A DNA stretch of 23,486 nt, taken from positions 1 through 23,486 of the forward strand of contig CAVUKB010000008.1 of the NCBI GenBank assembly GCA_963741955.1. The letters run 5' to 3'. The stretch is from an uncultured Acidobacteriota bacterium (GTDB taxonomy: Bacteria; Acidobacteriota; Thermoanaerobaculia; Gp7-AA8). Made by a program: the position numbers and the translations under genes. Shown here piece after piece: positions 3,068 to 15,135 of this stretch. The notes below the pieces were generated by a model. The model was given only the letters and a program-made list of their open reading frames with translations. It was not told the origin of the DNA and did no database searches. Position 1 is the stretch's first letter; each line of letters begins with the position of its first letter.

Positions 3068-3571
3068 TTACTCATCGCCCTCCGCGGCGCGCCGCAATGC
3101 GTCGAGATCGATCTTCTTCATCGAGAGAAGAGCCTTCATCGTCCGGTTCGCTCTCCCCGCGGCGCCTCCGAGGTATTTGCCGAGATCCTTCGGCACGATC
3201 TGCCATGAGAGACCGAAACGATCCTTGAGCCAGCCACACTGTTGCGCGCTCGGATCGCCTCCCTCCGAGAGCTGCTCCCAGTAGTGATCCACCTCCTCCT
3301 GCGAATCACAGTTCACCACGAACGAAACCGCCTCGGTGAAGTGGAATTGAGGGCCGCCGTTCAGCGCGACGAATTCATGTCCGTCCAGCTCGAAGACGAC
3401 CGTCATCACCGACCCTTCCGGCTTCCCCGACGCGGCTGCGCTGTTCCTGTCGTAATGCGTCGTCGTGATGATCTCCGAGTTCGGGAAGACCGATGTATAG
3501 AACTTCGCCGCCGCCTCGGCATTGTCGTCGAACCAGAGAAACGGTGTGATCTTCTGTGCCCTGACCTGCAT
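3068..3571 (-). CDS. VOC/glyoxalase-superfamily protein (PhnB / 3-demethylubiquinone-9 3-methyltransferase-like family)
   Basis: QKITPFLWFD..AEAAAKFYTSVF, ALNGGP.F.FTEAVSF.V.C..QEEVD.YW..L, CGWLKDRFGLSWQIVP, MKKID; AAGGAG SD upstream of ATG 3571. Confidence 0.93.
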   Translation of the reverse strand: MQVRAQKITPFLWFDDNAEAAAKFYTSVFPNSEIITTTHYDRNSAAASGKPEGSVMTVVFELDGHEFVALNGGPQFHFTEAVSFVVNCDSQEEVDHYWEQLSEGGDPSAQQCGWLKDRFGLSWQIVPKDLGKYLGGAAGRANRTMKALLSMKKIDLDALRRAAEGDE

Positions 3572-3861
3572 TTCGACTCTCCTTCAAATCTGACAGTCAT
3601 TTGAACGGACTCCGGACCGGCAGGAAATCATCGGTCGGTGAGTACTGGAATCTGCTCCCGCTCGCATGGTTCACAGGATCGCGTCGCGACGTGTGGAACT
3701 GCGCAGGCAGAGTCGTCCGGACTCGAACCGCTGAACCGTCTTAATAGCAGGACAGCTTCTACTGCGCAATCTCATGGTCAACGTCGCCGACGGGAGCCAA
3801 TTCAGGCGCCGGAACGCGGAGGAACATCCGACCGTTCGGGTAGGGCGAGGACAGCCGACCC

Positions 3862-4920
3862 TCACGGCTGCGGACAACGCGGATCGGGGGTTCTCGTCGC
3901 CGCGATCGTATCGAGAACCTTCCGGACTCCGCGGGCGAGCTCGATCGGATCTCCCGACCGCAGGGTGTGCGAGAAGAAGAGATTCGGATCGATGGCGATC
4001 TGCTGATTGTACAGACAATGGATCTCGAAGCCGGCGGCGCGAGCCGTGGTCAGTGCAGGGTTGACCTCACCGGCCAGCATCGCGAAATCCACTTCGCAGT
4101 TCGCTTTCGATCCGCTCTCCTCGAGAGGCTGAAACGTGATCTTGTGCAGGACATTCAACCGCGGCCGGAGCACCACTCCGGCTTCGACGAACGTCTGGCT
4201 CCGGGTGACCATCACCGCGACGACGCCATCGTCCTCGACCGACGCCTTCCCGCCGATGATGTCGCCGATCTGCTGGTCGGGCAACGGCGTGGTCGGATTC
4301 GCCGGCGGCTTCTGCGGCGGCGGCGTCGCCGTGGCGCGGACCACCTGCATCGCCCAGGCTTCGCGACATCGAGTGGGTTTCCTCGTCGCGGAAGTGGTAG
4401 TGGAACGGCTGAGGAACCTGTCCGATGAAGTGCTGCCGATTTGCTCAGCCATCAGTTCGAGAGGCGAGCCGAGGATCACGTCGATGGAGTCGCGTTCAGT
4501 CTTCCGATCCAGAAAAACGAATGCGGCGTTCATGAACGCCTCGCCGTTGCTAGAGCGCCTGGAAGAAGAACTCGTGCTGCGGCGCAAACGCCGGCTTGAA
4601 GACGTGACCGTGCGGACCTTCGATCCGTACGTCCTCGTCCGCCCGAAGCGATCGTGAGAACACCGTCCTCCATCTTCCCGCTCGTCGTGCATGATCTTTT
4701 CGATCTGCGAAAAACTGGAAGATCGCCTCCCGGACGGGATCGGCTCGCACGAGCCGAGCGTGTAGGCAGGCGGCTCCGCCGGCGACGCGGTCGCGCACGG
4801 CCCGGTGAGCGCCGCGGCGACTACGCTCCGCCCCGCTGATCAGAATGGCGCGACGGCTGAAGTCCTGGAACGCTGAGGTGTCGAAACGTCTTCCTGAAAA
4901 TCACGATCGGTTGCGGGCAT
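3862..4920 (-). CDS. Tat-exported tandem DUF1259-like domain protein; many frameshifts (errors or pseudogene)
   Basis: AGGAG SD then ATG 4920 (MPATDRDFQEDV). A shifted frame gives FSRRAILISGA (twin-arginine motif). Repeat 1 fragments: QIEKIMH, KMEDGVLTI, FKPAFAPQHEFFFQ, GEAFMN. Repeat 2 is intact: IGDIIGGKASVEDDGVVAV..FQPL..DFAMLAGEVNPAL..AGFEIHCLYNQQIAIDPNLFFSH..GDPIELARGVRKVLD. Family assigned from remembered motifs. Confidence 0.65.
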
Positions 4921-5033
4921 GCGGTTCTCCTGCAGTCGTTCTTCGCCTCTCGCAGAGGTGACGTCGAGTTTGCCACGTCCGCTGACGGCCACGGGTCACA
5001 CTGCAACTCACACACCCGATCTCGACCGCAGAG

Positions 5034-5507
5034 TTACCAGAGGGTCAGCTGCTGCGGCCTGGGGGTAAAGGCGGACGGCGGCGGGAGCTGCGGCGGCGTG
5101 GAACGCACGGGACGGGCGCGGTGCCCGAGGAGCACGGGAAGATTGTGCTTGAGCCATTCGCGGGCTTCACGGTGATAGCGGAAGCGGCGCTCGTGACTGT
5201 GGAAGCGGCGGTTGTGCGCACCACCGAGTACGTGATGGAGAAACTCGTGGAAGACGATCGATTGGATGAAGAAGTGCGGAACTTCCGGCGAGTCGAGGAG
5301 CGGATGGATCCGGATCACTTCGGTCGTGCGATGGTAGGAGCCGAGCCGGATGCTGCTTCGTCTCTTACGCCGGATGCGTTTTCCCCATTGGATCTCCGGC
5401 CGCGTGTACTTCGGAAAATACTCGCGGTGGATCTCCTGCGCGATCTGATCGAGATCGTAGAAACCCGACTCCGCGCTGACCAGAACTCCGTCGAATCCGT
5501 CGCTCAA
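5034..5507 (-). CDS. SprT/YgjP-like zinc metalloprotease with Pro-rich tail ending QQLTLW
   Basis: GAGGAG SD and TTG start; WG..(basic)..IRLGSY..IRIHPLLD..VP.FF...IVFHEFLHHVLGGAHNRRF (HEXXH plus a third His); intact ORF. Confidence 0.85.
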   Translation of the reverse strand: MSDGFDGVLVSAESGFYDLDQIAQEIHREYFPKYTRPEIQWGKRIRRKRRSSIRLGSYHRTTEVIRIHPLLDSPEVPHFFIQSIVFHEFLHHVLGGAHNRRFHSHERRFRYHREAREWLKHNLPVLLGHRARPVRSTPPQLPPPSAFTPRPQQLTLW

Positions 5508-5517
5508 GCTGTCCTCC

Positions 5518-8125
5518 TCAGCTTCGTCCCCTCACTACGGCCACGACGTAATTGTCGACTTGGAGATACTTTTTCGCAATATCTCTGACCTCATCGCGGG
5601 AGATCGCGTGGATCCTCTCCAGAAACCGCTCCGTGAAGTCGAGGCCCAGCCCGTAGAGGACGTTCCTCGCGATCTCTCCCGCCAGCGCGGCGTTGGTCTG
5701 CAGGTGGATCTTCGTCGAGCCGGCCAGATACGCCTTCGCCCGGGTGATCCCCTCCTCGTTGGTACCCTCTCCTCCGAGCATCCGAAGCTCCTCGAGGAGA
5801 CTTCTTCTCGCTTCCTCTTCCTTCCCCGCCTCGGTCGCGATGTAGGCGACGAACGCGCCGGCGAGCTCGCGGTGGGAGTCGCCCGCGTAGACCGTGTACG
5901 CGAGCGAGCGTTTGCTTCGGAGCTCGACGTACAGCCTTCCCCGCGCCGCCGGACGCAACATCCTGCAGCAGGCGGAGAACGGCCCAGTCGGGATGGGACG
6001 GCGGCACGGAAGGGAAACCGATCGCGATCGCGGTCTGCTTCCGGTCGCGGACTTCGATCGTCTCGAGACGCGTCCCGGGAACGACCGGCGCGGTCAGCGG
6101 GCGGTGGAGTCTCCGGCTCTTTCCGAGACGGCCGAACACCCGCTCCATCGAGTCGCGGACCCCTTCGGCATCGACGTCGCCGACGACTACGATCGTCGCG
6201 CCGTCTGCGACGACGTGTCCCTCGTACCAGGAGACGAGGTCGGCCCGGCCGAGAGACTCGATCACCGGCACGAACCCTCCGTCGGGGAGGCCGTACGGAT
6301 GTGGTCCGTAGAGCGTTGCGAAGAGAAGCTGGAACGGGCGGGCGGACGACGAGTCGAGCGCTCTTCGGATCGACGCGATCTGCAGGTGCTGCTCTTCCGC
6401 GATCTTCTCCTCCGGGAAGACCGGCTTGAGGATGACGTCCGCGAGGATCTCCGCCGCGGGCTCGTAAAGCTTCCGCAGCACTTCGAGATTGAATCCGAAG
6501 AAGTGTTCGTCGACCACCAGGCCGATCTGAGTGCCGAGGAGCTCGATCTCGCGATCGATCTCTTCCCCGCTCCGTTTACCGGTGCCGCGCCGCATGCTGC
6601 GGGCCATCAGCTGCGTGATGCCGGCGTTCGAGCTGTTCTCCCGGACTCTTCCTCCCCGGAAGTAGACCGCCATGGAGACCGCCGGCGTCCCCATCCGTTC
6701 CCGCACGAAGAGCGACATGCCGTTGGAGAGGACGAAGCTACGAGTCGAATCTTTCGACGTCGCTCCTCGGAACCCCGCGGCGATCTCCGGCAGCGGGACT
6801 TCCGGCGGGGCTTGCACGCGCGCGCTCCCCGCGTCACGGAGGAGCTCCAACGCAGATTCACGCGTCGACGCCGCGACGCCCCGAGGAAGGTGACGAAAGA
6901 GGGTCATGTTTTCAGTTTGCAGATAGCGGTTCACGACTTCGCGGATCTGCTCTTCTCCGAGAGCTGCGATCCGGTCGAGATGGAGAGAGATTCTTTCGTA
7001 ACCGCCTCTCGCCTCGAAATACGCGAGCGTGTCCGCCTGTCCCAGAACGTCTTCGAGCTCGAACACGAACGCCGCCTCGATACGATTCCTCGCAAGCTCG
7101 AGCTCGTAGGCGACCGGTCCCCACTGTCTGAAACGCTCGATCCCTTCGACGATGCGCCGCTCCGTTGCCTCGCCGTTCGCCGAGTCGTATGCCGCACGGA
7201 TGGTGAACATCCCCACGTCCTCGTAAACCATGTTGAACGCGCTGACCGAGCTCGCCGCGTCGGGAGCGACGGCACTCCGGAAAAGACGTGAATAGCGACC
7301 CGCCCCGAGGATCGAGGCAGCGATCAGCAGCGCCTCTTCGTCCTCGTGGTTCTCGCCGGGAGTGTGCCAGCCGAAGACGGAATAACCCTGCTGGATGTCG
7401 GCGAACGACTCTCCGAACCGGAGCTCCTTCTGCGGCGGCTCCTCCGGTCCGCGCTCCTTTCGGAGCTCCCCCGCAGGAATCTGCCCGAACGTGCTCTCCG
7501 CCATCTCGATCATCTTCTGTTGCGGTACGTCACCCGCAACCGAGACGATGATGTTCGACGGACGGTAGAGGGTCTGGAAGAACGCGAAAAGATCGTCCCG
7601 GCGAATGTTCCGCAGGACGTCGTTCGAGCCGATGCGCCACCGTCGCATCCGGTGACGGGTGAAGGCAGTGGCGAACATCCGCTCCGTGGCGACAGCGGCA
7701 GGATTGTCGAGCTTCCCGTTGGATTCTCGATCACCACTTCCGCTTCGCGCTTCAGCTCATCGGGGTCGAAGAGTGGATTGGCGATGGCGTCCGCCTGGAT
7801 CTCCATCCCCTTCGCGAAGCCCTCGGAAGGGAGAACGAAGTAGTAGTTCGTCGAATCGTAGATCGTCCCGGCGTTGCTGTATCCGCCGAGTCCGGTGACG
7901 TGAGTCGAGATCTCGTCGGCTCCGGGAAACCGCTTCGAGCCCTTGAAGAACATGTGCTCGAAGAGGTGCGCCATCCCGGCGACCTCGTCCGGTTCGTGAA
8001 AGTACCCGCGCGGACCCAGGTCTTGATGGCCACCACGCCGCGGCCCCTCTCCTCACGCGTGAGGAGGTCAACCCGTTGGACAGTCTGGTCCGACGGACGG
8101 ACTCGAGGAATGGCTCGAGTGCCAC
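5518..8125 (-). CDS. M16 family (pitrilysin/PqqL-like) zinc peptidase with two M16 halves; about 4 frameshifts
   Basis: Pieces: RTRLSNGLT (7757..8125), VVAIKTWVRAG, GMAHLFEHMFFKGS (inverted HXXEH), NAGTIYDSTNY, EAEVVIE; ORF 5591..7678 (YRPSNIIVSVAGD; second half LSNGM..GITQLMARSMRRGT, which lacks the zinc motif); ORF 5518..5961 (GRLYVELRSKRSLAY). Shifts near 8065, 8000, 7720 and 5960. No signal peptide. Confidence 0.92.
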
Positions 8126-8136
8126 CGCGGCTCCGT

Positions 8137-8463
8137 CTACCCGTGGCCCCCGAGCTTGGAGGCCAGCATCGAATTGATGCTGGTGGTGGCCAGCGCCGCC
8201 ACCATTGACGATCCGGCGGCGATCGCGTCATCCCCCTTCTTGTAGCCGACGAGGAAACCGATCCCCGCTCCCAACAGAATGGCGGCGATCGGAAATCGGA
8301 CCACCTGTTCACGCCACGCTTCCGGAAGAAGATTCTCGATCTCGTCGAGAAGCGCCTGAGGGCCGCCTTCGAACAGGGCCGAGCCCATGGCGGCGGCCCG
8401 ATCCCGAACCACTTCTTCGTAATCCATGCCTTCGGCTGAACTGTCGAATTCCTCTTCAATCAA
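8137..8463 (-). CDS. Small membrane-anchored hypothetical protein, DUF883/ElaB-like hydrophobic segment
   Basis: AGGAGG SD and TTG; acidic N-terminus then EQVVRFPIAAILLGAGIGFLVGYKKG, resembling the DUF883 C-terminal 'P..A...A.G.GF..G' motif; 11-nt gaps to both neighbours. Confidence 0.7.
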   Translation of the reverse strand: MIEEEFDSSAEGMDYEEVVRDRAAAMGSALFEGGPQALLDEIENLLPEAWREQVVRFPIAAILLGAGIGFLVGYKKGDDAIAAGSSMVAALATTSINSMLASKLGGHG

Positions 8464-8474
8464 CGCCGAACCTC

Positions 8475-8808
8475 CTACTCTTCCTCTTCATCGCCACGAC
8501 GCCGCAGCATGAGGCCGACCACGAACCCGACTCCGATCGACATCAGGAGGGCCTTTCCCGGATTGGCCTGCACGTATGCGCGGATCCGCTCGCCCATTCC
8601 CTGAAGATCGACGTCCTGAACTTTCTCACGCACGGCCGAGTAGCGGTTCTTCATCGACTCGGATGCCGAATCGAATTTCTCTTTCACATTCTCGCTCGCC
8701 TCGGAGTACTTCTGCTCGACGTATTCTTTCGCGCGATTGACCTTCGCACCGGTCGAGGTCGAGCTCGACTCCGATCCTGCCGGTGGGCTGTTCTCTCTCC
8801 TCTGCCAT
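8475..8808 (-). CDS. ElaB/YqjD/DUF883 family tail-anchored membrane protein; one frameshift near 8760
   Basis: GGAGGT SD, ATG 8808 (MAEEREQPTG); helical repeats AKEYVEQKYSEASENVKEKFDSASESMKNRY; C-terminal signature YVQANPGKALLMSIGVGFVVGLMLRRR. Confidence 0.85.
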
Positions 8809-12480: not shown

Positions 12481-12518
12481 GTGATTCTTCGCTGCTGCTG
12501 CCACGCTGAGGCTGTCCT

Positions 12519-13237
12519 TCACTGCGGTGTGATCACTTCAACGTCTTCGGAATCGTTATTCGTCACGGTCACGAAGGCCCAAAGGCGCACGTCGTGAGAA
12601 CCAGCGATCTGGATCCAGCCGTAATCACCGAAAACTGCCGACCTACCTCGATCGGAAATTGTGCGTACCTCAGCTCGGTAATCACGTTTGGATGAATCGC
12701 ATCTATTCGCCAGCTCGCGACGGGCAGATTATCGAGCATTGTTCGAAGCGTGACCTCGATCGTCTCTGTGCCAACGCGGTCCGGCGTAAGAAGTATATAC
12801 ATTCGCAAAGTCAACCGATCCGAATCCCGAAATGGGATCCCAGTCAACAGTGCCTCCCCTCTCAGGAGTTCGTCCTCACGAACGACCGGAATTTCGGTCA
12901 TCCGGTCCGATTTCCCGTCCGCCATGACTGTCAGACGGAACGCCACGTGTTCGCCGTCGTACAGCTTCCAGAGCATTTCCCTGCCAATGCGAAAATCGAC
13001 GAGGCTGCTCTGGGCGGCAATCGGGAAAGCCACCGGAGGGCTCGAAGCGACCATTTCGGCCAGCGAGTCGCCGGCGTTCGTCACGGACAGCTTGACCTTC
13101 CACGTCGTAGCGTGAGCGCCCTCGTATTCGCCGGGGGGGATCGGCAGCAGAACATACGATTCGCTCGCGAGCGCCGACGCGGAGGCGACAATCCACGTGA
13201 CCAGCACGAAACACAAAGGCTTTATCTTTTTTCTCAT
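12519..13237 (-). CDS. Secreted hypothetical protein; frameshift near the C-terminus
   Basis: Signal peptide MRKKIKPLCFVLVTWIVASASALA|S; VLLPI..GAHATTWKVKLSVTN; TEIPVVRE; RLTLRMY. A shifted frame gives the tail DVRLWAFVTVTNNDSEDVEVITPQ-stop (TGA 12519-12521). I recall this motif set from a paralogous hypothetical family in Thermoanaerobaculia; not verified by search. Confidence 0.75.
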
Positions 13238-13309
13238 ATCGTCCCGCTGGTTGCGGCTTTGCCTCGCCGCGTCAGTTTGCTCCTCCGATCTCCAACTCGA
13301 GTTCAATAA

Positions 13310-14473
13310 CTAATTCGGCGACCCGCTACCGAGGCCAGTGAGTCGATTGGTCGTTGCCTTTCCCTTTCAGCGCGGCTTCGAGTTGAGCTGGAGTGTACGT
13401 TGGGTTGATTGACAGAAATTTGGCCATGACCCCGGCGACATGAGGCGATGCTCCTGACGTTCCACCGAACAATATCTCGCCGTAGAAGTTGTGCGGATCA
13501 GCGGCCGCTGTATCGACTCCGGGAGCGAACAGATCCACGCACGCTCCCCGGTTAAAAAACGCCGCCATCGCGTCAGCGCTATTCGAGGCACCGACAGTTA
13601 CCACTCCGTCCATTGATCCCATTCCCGAAGGCTGGCCCGCACATGCGTCCAAAGAGTCATTGCCCGCCGCGACAACAATGGGAACCATCTGCGCCAGGTT
13701 CGCGGTCGCGGTACTTACTAACGGGCTATTATAGTCGATCAGGCTCATGTTCACGACGCTCGGCCCGGAGTCGTGATTCCCGATCCACTCCAATCCGGCG
13801 ATCCAATCAGCCGTGGATGTCGAGAGCTACGTACATCCGTAGACCCGAACGTCGTATATGTTTGATGCTCGCGCGACACCGTGGGTCGCCCCGGCTGCCT
13901 GGCTGGCTACTGCAGTTCCGTGCGGATAGCAGTCGTCGGTCCTATTCTCCCCGGAAGCTGACACGAAGTTGATGTTACCGACAAGTCGGCCTCCGAATCC
14001 GGAGTGGTCGTTCACCCCCGTATCCACAACGAAGATCGTGACGTTCGCGCCATCGACATCCTGGTACGCGTATGATGACGAGAGAGGCAGGTCTCGCTGA
14101 TCGATCCGATTCAGCCCCCAATTGCTAGGATTGTACTGGATGGAAGCAACCTCGAAGTGAGAGTCTTGGTAAACCGCGTTCACAATGGGATTCCTGCTCA
14201 CGGCCATCGCCGCTTGCTCGGACCCTCGAAACGAGAATCCGCGAAGTAACGTTGTGTAGGTGTACCCAAGCGTATTGGCGCCGACTAACTTCGCTGCTGT
14301 AATGGGTATATCTTCTACCTCGTCGTTCAGAAGAGCGATGTACACTCCCCGATTCGTGTTATCCGAACGATGGATGTAGCCTGTTGCGCCGCAACGTATG
14401 GACGAATGATCGCCATCGCCAACACGGCGATGGCGATCTCTCTTCCAGCTCGTGTGCATCTCAGGTATTGCAT
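13310..14473 (-). CDS. S8 subtilase (aqualysin/proteinase K-like) with I9-like propeptide; about 3 frameshifts
   Basis: ATG 14473 with signal-like MQYLRCTRAGREIAIAVLAMAII; propeptide ..YTTLLRGFS..VNAVYQD; NWGLNRIDQRDLPL; VVDTG (Asp), HGTAVAS (His), VVNMSL, VAAGND, DLFAPG, GTSGASPHVAG (Ser); last frame KATTNRLTGLGSGSPN-TAG (13310-13312). Confidence 0.92.
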
Positions 14474-14694
14474 GCAGTCTTCCTCTTTCTTCTTGTCTTT
14501 CTGTCTTTCTGAATCTCTTGAACTTGCTTGCGGCACCGGGTGAGTCGCCGCCGCGATAGCACTGTCTTGAAGATGACCCCGGGGCCACCATCGCTCAGTG
14601 GCGGTGCTCGTCCGGCCGGCAGCGTTTTAGGGCAAGAAACCCGTCTTCGTTTGCAGCCTCTCGCGAAGAGATGATGGGGTCGTGACCGCGTCCG

Positions 14695-15084
14695 TTAGCC
14701 GCGGCGGTACGTGGTCTTCGCGTTCGAAACGCCCGCGGTCCGGAGAAGGTGGATGGCGTGAATCAGCCGTTGGGACAGCTCCCGCACGTCCGTAGACCCT
14801 CTGACGCTGCGGGGCACGACGGTCGGGGTCCCGCCTAAGCTTAGTGATGTCGCACCACTGCCCGATCCTTCACGATCGCGCACCAAACCGGCAGCAATCC
14901 CCCGGCAGGCTGCCAGCAGTCGCATGATGTTCCCCTCCCATCTTGGGAGCTCCGCGAGGAGACCGTATTGGTACCCAGGTTCGGACCACCGTAACGGTTT
15001 CGTAACACCAGAATTGAAGATTGCCGGCGGTTCGACCGGTCCTTCAAGGCCTAAGACTTCGTCGATCGATCTTTCTCTGGCCAT
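14695..15084 (-). CDS. Possible 129-aa hypothetical protein
   Basis: GGAG 5 nt before ATG 15084; MARERSIDEVLGLEGPVEPP...; fills an otherwise empty gap, but has no recognisable motif and is the tail of an antisense shadow ORF. Confidence 0.25.
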   Translation of the reverse strand: MARERSIDEVLGLEGPVEPPAIFNSGVTKPLRWSEPGYQYGLLAELPRWEGNIMRLLAACRGIAAGLVRDREGSGSGATSLSLGGTPTVVPRSVRGSTDVRELSQRLIHAIHLLRTAGVSNAKTTYRRG

Positions 15085-15135
15085 ATACGCTCCGGGACTG
15101 CTCCGTCCCCGCACGATTTCTGTTAGATTTCCGCC

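Follow-up and report, generated by a model that had tools for sequence, protein, structure and literature searches.

Background

In bacteria, small DNA-protein crosslinks are dealt with by nucleotide excision repair and large ones by recombination, and their proteolytic handling is poorly defined. Eukaryotic SPRTN (DVC1; PDB 6mdx, 6mdw) joins a SprT-like catalytic domain, in which HExxH is followed downstream by a third histidine and then an aromatic residue, to a disordered tether and a short peptide, the PIP box, that binds the clamp PCNA. Here we describe a gene for a 157-residue protein with the same fold, the same zinc-site arrangement and the same order of parts, in which a QLxLF/W-type peptide takes the place of the PIP box. 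The gene lies in a 23,486-nucleotide stretch of DNA from an uncultured Acidobacteriota bacterium (Thermoanaerobaculia, Gp7-AA8; assembly GCA_963741955.1, contig CAVUKB010000008.1, positions 1 to 23,486 of the forward strand), which is referred to at its full length as the window. The protein differs from SPRTN in its size (157 against ~490 residues), in having neither the zinc-binding/basic DNA-binding subdomain nor ubiquitin- or p97-binding modules, and in its clamp partner, which would be the bacterial DnaN; sequence similarity is marginal, at 18-21% identity in structural alignments. It is a SprT-like protein outside the SPRTN/Wss1 set as that set is defined by its DNA-binding modules.

Known clients of the bacterial beta-clamp, DnaN, include polymerases, repair ATPases, nucleases, ligase, replication regulators, transposases and toxins. 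Hda carries its clamp motif, QLSLPL, at the N-terminus, and polymerases II and IV carry theirs at the C-terminus. Like such clients, the protein described here bears the same penta- or hexapeptide consensus at the terminus of a disordered segment, as that consensus is set out in PMC9690074 and PMC10421592. Its catalytic module is comparable to the ~110-residue archaeal minigluzincins (selecase, 4qhf; projannalysin, 4jix; proabylysin, 4jiu), nearly the whole of which is covered in structural alignment; these differ in having no linker or clamp-type tail and in being deposited as zymogen or oligomerisation-regulated forms. SprT of Escherichia coli and Bacillus (NF003421, NF003339) and the YgjP-like proteins (PF01863) share with it the zincin superfamily and the HExxH...H arrangement, but it lacks the C-terminal zinc ribbon of SprT as well as any NCBIfam match, and is not an orthologue. 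In the full-text literature, which leaves most subscription journals outside, we found no bacterial SprT-like protease tied to the clamp, no protease among the clamp clients, no dedicated replication-coupled bacterial protease like SPRTN or Wss1, and no paper in which 'SprT' and 'clamp-binding' co-occur.

A minimal SprT-like zinc metalloprotease

The protein is encoded by a single open reading frame (ORF) with a TTG start, as given by the ORF listing and translation of the window (coordinates in Table 1). The parts on which the original prediction was built, namely a 157-residue ORF, a basic segment, HEFLH with a third histidine, a Pro-rich linker and a terminal QQLTLW, are all found in the sequence; a signal peptide was said to be absent, and by inspection the N-terminus, MSDGFDGVLVSAESGFYDL, indeed has no hydrophobic signal-like stretch. 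All of the evidence below consists of metagenome-assembled genome (MAG) sequence and of predictions.

The protein has 141 homologues at E <= 1e-3, and HMMER, run against all 1.84 billion representatives, returned 2,016 relatives at the same threshold. We distinguish a short form, to which the protein belongs (104-sequence alignment A1), from a long form that includes most of the distant relatives; the two are combined in alignment A3. SprT-like (PF10263) is the sole Pfam match of the query (residues 20-114, E 7.3e-4), at 19.8 bits against a gathering threshold of 25.6. All ten relatives that were scanned match the same family, six of them above the threshold (P0129 at 36.2 bits, P0143 at 32.9, P0131 at 30.2, P0127 at 26.7, P0148 at 26.5 and P0134 at 26.2). 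In the NCBIfam library the query has no match and its relatives reach SprT models at only 14-19 bits against cut-offs of 113-175, and the PHROGs and PADLOC libraries give no match for either form.

An AlphaFold2 model built on 104 homologues has a mean predicted local distance difference test score (pLDDT) of 87.6 and a predicted template-modelling score of 0.75. It was compared with solved structures by Foldseek against the PDB (probability 0.99 for the fold match) and by VIA-align, in which the archaeal minigluzincins are the nearest folds (Z 11.1-12.6, root-mean-square deviation (rmsd) 2.4-2.8 over 100-106 residues, 11-18% identity), with selecase at Z 12.6 (rmsd 2.4, 105 of 109 residues), jannalysin at Z 12.1 and abylysin at Z 11.1. 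The SPRTN protease domain comes next (Z 9.4-9.6 over 97-102 residues; for 6mdx, Z 9.6 and rmsd 2.9 over 97 residues), followed by M48/M56 peptidases and Wss1 at Z 6.6-7.5, Wss1 itself lying at 6.7-6.8.

Short and long forms alike have the signature HExxH...H..F...E without variation (A1, A3). The only invariant columns of A3 correspond to L19, G56, H87, E88, H91, H98, F102 and E106 of the query, and six of these eight form the zinc site together with the SprT signature; A3 columns H227, E228 and H231 are H87, E88 and H91 of the query, and the signature at H98 (codon 5214-5216) is aligned with 'H-x-P-E-F' of the long forms. The family of the query has the HExxH, the third histidine downstream and the aromatic residue behind it that characterize SprT-like proteins. 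Together with the Pfam match, the above-threshold relatives and the structural likeness to SPRTN, this invariant signature bears out the original assignment to the SprT-like, or minimal-zincin, metalloproteases.

The protein is strongly basic, with an isoelectric point of 10.8 overall and 10.4 for its core (family median 11.3). A 'very basic segment' had been singled out in the original prediction, and it is both present and conserved (in A1, W41, R50, S52, I53 and R54 are invariant and G42, R47 and R51 at least 90% conserved), but it forms a loop and hairpin of the catalytic domain, flanked in the model by strands 38-41 and 56-59, and is not a separate DNA-binding module. Residues 41-54 may nonetheless contact nucleic acid, and we regard the loop as a candidate for this. 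The protein has one domain only (residues ~12-128), the remainder being unstructured linker, and no dedicated DNA-binding module was found in it, the sole candidates for such a function being the basic loop and the high isoelectric point.

The family data also bear on whether the protein cleaves proteins at all. It might instead be a metal-dependent hydrolase of the YgjP/DUF45 type, acting on nucleotides or small molecules, with a tail that may or may not bind the clamp: one source labels a homologue 'predicted metal-dependent hydrolase', one of 120 homologues has a precomputed PF01863 match, P0131 matches YgjP-like weakly (E 0.009, 16.4 bits against a threshold of 26), and atlas neighbours carry a mixture of YgjP-like, SprT-like and WLM labels. 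The query, however, has no PF01863 match at E <= 0.01 and SprT-like as its sole Pfam match, the ten relatives behave as described above, and the best solved folds are peptidases, so that a hydrolase of this type seems to us very improbable.

A conserved terminal peptide on a variable linker

Among 120 close homologues of the short form (50-70% identity, 142-190 residues, from Thermoanaerobaculia MAGs where named), the motif Q[LM]xL[FW] occurs within the last 12 residues of 114, and the relaxed form QxxLF in all 120. The strict motif is exactly C-terminal in 87 of the 114 and is followed by one residue in 19, by two in 4 and by four in 4. In A1, Q153 and L156 are invariant and F at position 157 is at least 90% conserved (the present protein has W), while none of the columns lying between G128 and Q153 is conserved. 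The linker measures 14-28 residues (median 20 in the 120 sequences) and has no secondary structure in the AlphaFold2 model; in the query it comprises 24 residues in front of QLTLW, including the Pro-rich stretch PVRSTPPQLPPPSAFTPRP (residues 133-151), and QQLTLW occupies the final six codons (5037-5054). Retention of QLxL[FW] at the C-terminus alongside a diverging linker, which had been proposed as a check on the original prediction, is therefore what the homologues display.

Such tails are rare in the host. Only 6 of its 21,171 stop-to-stop ORFs of at least 120 codons have Q[LM]xL[FW] in the last 10 residues, and because of this rarity we take the tail to be beyond chance. Two of the six are copies of the SprT-like gene itself, one is a porin ending in aromatics and one has no coding support. 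The remaining two are a metallo-beta-lactamase-fold protein (Lactamase_B_2; C1:166535-167440, plus strand), which ends GQLALF, and an AAA_28 P-loop protein (C7:458993-459994, minus strand), which ends SQLPLFGSR, in each case after a Pro/Arg-rich linker. Judging from these tails, both proteins may be further clamp clients.

The clamp-binding consensus and the host DnaN

The published pentapeptide consensus for beta-clamp binding is QL(S/D)LF (PMC9690074), and a variant ending in W, QLPLWG of ImuB, was validated by mutation (PMC10421592). QLTLW, located in a disordered segment and at the very C-terminus, agrees with motifs of the QL[SD]LF / QLxLxL type. The earlier view of the tail as a clamp-type motif has thus gained from its agreement with the consensus of PMC9690074, from the W precedent of PMC10421592 and from its conservation while the flanks diverge. 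Taken separately from any role, binding of this tail to the clamp would be quite likely.

The host DnaN is a 375-residue ORF adjoining dnaA on contig C13 (C13:69486-70610). A complex of DnaN (25-row alignment) with tail residues 118-157 (104-row alignment), the modelling of which had been suggested along with the original prediction, scored 0.58, against 0.02 for the best of three controls; between runs, 92% or more of the contacts agree, with a partner pLDDT of at least 45. This ranks as 'weak support'. In calibration, such a score is attained by 58 of the 80 solved complexes and by 2 of the 110 mismatches, but the band up to 0.60 accounts for no more than 7 of the former and for both of the latter. 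Solved structures moreover include many clamp-peptide complexes; the pass may come from resemblance to these alone, and we give it no weight as evidence.

An ImuB-like inactive Y-family protein of the host (590-residue frame, C4:518576-519139 region) has an internal QLSIFG, resembling QLPLWG of mycobacterial ImuB. This motif, and the tail of the host DinB homologue considered below, are suggestive as comparators for motif usage in the lineage.

Relocation of the motif in long-form relatives

Most of the distant relatives have 210-300 residues; they possess an additional, conserved domain at the N-terminus and stop right behind the last helix of the catalytic domain. Many of these long forms begin with a short leader containing QLDLF, QLSLPL, QLALPF or the like at residues ~5-15, some 20-100 residues away from the catalytic domain. 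Of the 110 long representatives, 34 have such a motif in the leader, where 200 leader shuffles give 1.4 on average and 5 at most; in the rest of the protein (the core) it occurs in 2 of the 110. It is likewise present in 85 of the 119 proteins that a search with one long form retrieved, which come from Myxococcales or Anaeromyxobacteraceae MAGs where named. The other 34 include 13 whose leaders are too short, the start having been called in or near the N-terminal domain, and ~9 with near-variants such as QLSIPL or QLTLPW. Across 146 representatives of the broad family, clustered at 50%, the motif is N-terminal in 34, C-terminal in 6, at both ends in none and at neither in 106.

Since it keeps its sequence while switching terminus, and its leash varies throughout, the motif behaves like a short linear motif for docking, and this is the strongest argument against any role that would need the C-terminus to be free. 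Its N-terminal position in the long forms rules out a role for a free C-terminal carboxylate.

The long-form N-terminal domain (~50-150 of P0142) has the signature TDNRSTMVSFRR...RVHHMFLDAP and is absent from the Thermoanaerobaculia short form. A long-form model (pLDDT 86) matched the PDB by Foldseek in its catalytic half only, with no match for the N-terminal domain. At the opposite end, 20 of the 119 long forms (among P0302-P0359) terminate in a conserved acidic F-D-[PLF]-[DE]-D-P-L-A, and nine of these 20 also bear the N-terminal clamp-type motif; the acidic peptide looks like a second docking motif.

A putative clamp-tethered protease

The intact active-site signature, the fold, and a motif that is conserved yet changes terminus across the family are supported directly, and the protein is probably a beta-clamp-tethered protease. 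We hypothesize that its basic SprT-like catalytic domain is carried on a flexible, fast-evolving, Pro-rich linker whose Q-L-x-L-F/W pentapeptide would dock into the protein-binding cleft of DnaN. Clamps loaded on DNA, whether at forks or left on repair or lagging-strand DNA, would recruit the protease; a leash of 14-28 residues would allow the catalytic domain to sweep the DNA beside the clamp, the basic surface would aid its seating on DNA, and cleavage of proteins stuck or crosslinked there would make the system a functional analogue of eukaryotic SPRTN with its PIP box and PCNA. In this scheme we infer the binding to DnaN, the dependence on DNA and the identity of the substrates. For the whole scheme, in which a zinc protease held at DnaN acts on DNA-associated proteins next to the clamp, the chances appear to us about even. 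Removal of crosslinks or roadblocks as its specific job is somewhat less probable than that, and a role in DNA-protein crosslink repair, though inferred, is plausible.

Several observations weigh against a clamp-tethered protease of this kind. The organism is known from MAGs alone, the query scores under the Pfam SprT-like threshold, and a search of the A1 profile against PDB sequences gave no match at E <= 10. The zinc-binding DNA-binding subdomain of SPRTN is missing from the 157-residue protein, and no replication or repair genes were found around the short form (80 genome loci and 21 loci of related genomes) or around the long form. The host DinB homologue (C5:267790-268233) ends PEMLLPGFE, which is not a canonical clamp motif, so motif usage in the lineage is not fully canonical. 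The 106 broad-family representatives lacking a recognisable motif make clamp tethering a trait of a clade and not a constant of the family. Finally, two of the closest solved folds, projannalysin and proabylysin, were deposited as zymogens according to their entry titles, and the tail has a pLDDT of 70-77 in the monomer model, which could mean that it is placed against the domain.

The last two points keep alive an autoinhibitory role for the tail. In minigluzincin zymogens, C-terminal segments block the cleft. The terminal peptide might accordingly be no ligand of DnaN, serving instead as a latency plug of the protein's own active-site cleft, as a degron or as a docking peptide for another partner; the zymogen titles among the top structural matches (4jix, 4jiu), a tail pLDDT that does not fall under 50, and the presence of other proteases (M16, HtrA) as immediate neighbours would all suit this. 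Against it, the motif is identical to the clamp-binding consensus; in the long forms it is N-terminal, 20-100 residues away from the catalytic domain; 27 of the 114 homologues with the strict motif have 1-4 residues behind the F; the linker varies widely in length and sequence, as would be expected of a tether; and an M16 peptidase adjoins the gene in just 5 of the 21 loci of related genomes. We therefore consider such a function of the peptide improbable.

A second possibility retains the clamp and changes the substrate. The tethered protease might degrade the partners of the clamp, or DnaN itself, clearing away, for instance, polymerases, Hda-like regulators or clamps left behind, and so regulate clamp traffic rather than repair crosslinks. 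The motif and protease evidence is the same for this as for a protease acting on proteins on DNA; a dedicated DNA-binding domain is absent, the leash would hold the active site near the clamp face, and there are no repair genes nearby. The strongly basic catalytic domain and its structural kinship with SPRTN and Wss1, however, point by analogy to DNA-associated substrates, and we view both regulation of clamp traffic and the particular targets just named as unlikely, if less so than a latency plug. The original proposal of a bacterial analogue of SPRTN is partly borne out: the SprT-like fold and the terminal clamp-type motif are supported, and binding to DnaN, activation by DNA and action at forks or on DNA-protein crosslinks are its predicted part.

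Gene features, neighbourhood and distribution

Table 1. The SprT-like gene and its parts in the 23,486-nucleotide window.
Feature	Position	Strand	Basis
Whole gene: SprT-like zinc metalloprotease with C-terminal clamp-binding-type tail	5034..5507	minus	ORF, homologues, AlphaFold2 model
Stop codon	5034-5036	minus	Translation
Shine-Dalgarno-like GGAGGA, 4 nt 5' of the TTG start	5512..5517	minus	Read from sequence
Catalytic domain, residues ~12-128, minimal zincin / SprT-like fold	5124..5474	minus	pLDDT 80-98, structural matches, Pfam
Basic loop WGKRIRRKRRSSIR, residues 41-54, between catalytic-sheet strands	5346..5387	minus	Conservation, model
HEFLH zinc-binding/catalytic motif, residues 87-91 (H87, E88, H91)	5235..5249	minus	Invariant in alignments
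Third zinc ligand and signature H98-x3-F102-x3-E106 (HNRRFHSHE)	5190..5216	minus	Invariant columns
Pro-rich, basic, variable linker, residues 129-152	5052..5123	minus	Conservation, model
C-terminal pentapeptide QLTLW, residues 153-157, short linear motif of the beta-clamp-binding type	5037..5051	minus	Homologue conservation

On reading the sequence, the TGA stop of the upstream gene is found at 5518-5520 and GGAGGA comes right behind it; from this arrangement the SprT-like gene is probably co-transcribed with the upstream gene. A promoter and terminator scan of 4600-5700 returned no promoter-like site and nothing useful. A search of sequencing runs found one soil DNA run with a small share of the words searched for and no RNA run containing them.

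The window holds, in minus-strand order, an ABC-transporter-like region (so labelled solely because of a tblastn match in an alternative frame), a small protein that has a hydrophobic helix at its C-terminus, an M16 peptidase, the SprT-like gene, a DUF1259 gene, a PhnB-like gene and a convergent HtrA. Across the 80 genome loci and the 21 loci of related genomes, the ORFs used for context were rough stop-to-stop frames, and the DNA is GC-rich; several neighbour clusters are therefore alternative frames of real genes. Two neighbours recur with the short form: upstream, a small protein whose C-terminal helix is hydrophobic, and downstream, a convergent HtrA-type protease. The small membrane-anchored protein stands directly 5' of the SprT-like gene in most relatives; in the window (~8164-8739, minus strand; L093:5142-5903 in a relative) it belongs to no Pfam family, and it is the best conserved of the upstream neighbours, at ~73 of the 80 loci by crude clustering of ORFs. 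Between the SprT-like gene and HtrA, the window contains the DUF1259 gene (3862-4692, minus strand) and the PhnB-like gene (3-dmu-9_3-mt; 3068-3571, minus strand), and at the relative's locus L093 HtrA directly follows the SprT-like gene.

For the long form, context was taken from those 50 of 80 metagenome loci (L137-L216) that reach at least 4 kilobases. Neighbours there are an NFACT-domain (RqcH-like) gene in 34 of 50 and an Omp85/POTRA (TamA-like) gene in 24 of 50, as well as TamB-like and pyruvate kinase genes. Adjacency to NFACT and Omp85 probably reflects synteny within the lineage and no functional link, and these neighbourhoods are uninformative.

In a tally over 31 genomes, the short form occurs in 19 of the 21 others from the host's order (the two lacking it are 95% and 78% complete) and in none of nine genomes from other families of the class. 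One of these nine, G024, is unpublished; it has a DnaN match and no SprT-like match, and its DnaN was left out of the DnaN alignment. The best 80 genome loci are all from Acidobacteriota/Thermoanaerobaculia MAGs, bar one short contig labelled Longimicrobium.

A second copy in the host genome

The window contig (C8, 1-23486) is a reversed, collinear variant of host contig C10:223846-245186, to which it is 84-94% identical; window positions 3585-5088 and 12506-15090 lack a counterpart there. The pair could stem from strain variation (a haplotig), from two populations binned together or from a segmental duplication of recent date. C10 holds a second copy of the SprT-like gene at 88.5% identity, and the ORF is intact in both copies; the linker of the C10 copy is different, yet its tail is kept as QQLSLW.

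The upstream M16 (insulinase-type) gene (window 5518-8125, minus strand) falls into three frames, 7510-7974, 5591-7678 and 5518-5961, implying two frameshifts that are due either to a pseudogene or to assembly indels. In C10 the same gene is a single ORF of 869 residues, and in related genome G006 it is continuous across the 3'-proximal break. With the M16 gene broken in C8 and whole in C10, C8 may carry indel errors or be a decaying duplicate or strain variant. The DUF1259 gene lies within the first of the unmatched segments, and from its position looks like a local insertion; the PhnB-like gene lies in an 83.5%-identical block, and so is present in C10.

Implications

If a clamp-tethered protease is the correct interpretation, it would add a new enzyme class to the clients of DnaN and provide a concrete candidate for replication-coupled proteolysis in bacteria. 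One may go further and picture a family-wide bacterial pathway, in which a clamp-recruited protease clears crosslinked or trapped proteins beside DnaN by means of a mobile clamp-binding peptide that is C-terminal in Thermoanaerobaculia and N-terminal in long forms of the Myxococcota type, with SPRTN and PCNA as a convergent or ancient counterpart. We put this forward as speculation, doubtful and a little less probable again than crosslink or roadblock removal by the present protein. As a case of a short linear motif changing ends, the family would offer a clean natural experiment in how such motifs evolve. Since the long forms come from Myxococcota-type organisms, relatives that can be cultured and genetically manipulated may serve to test the idea, in addition to the uncultured Acidobacteria.

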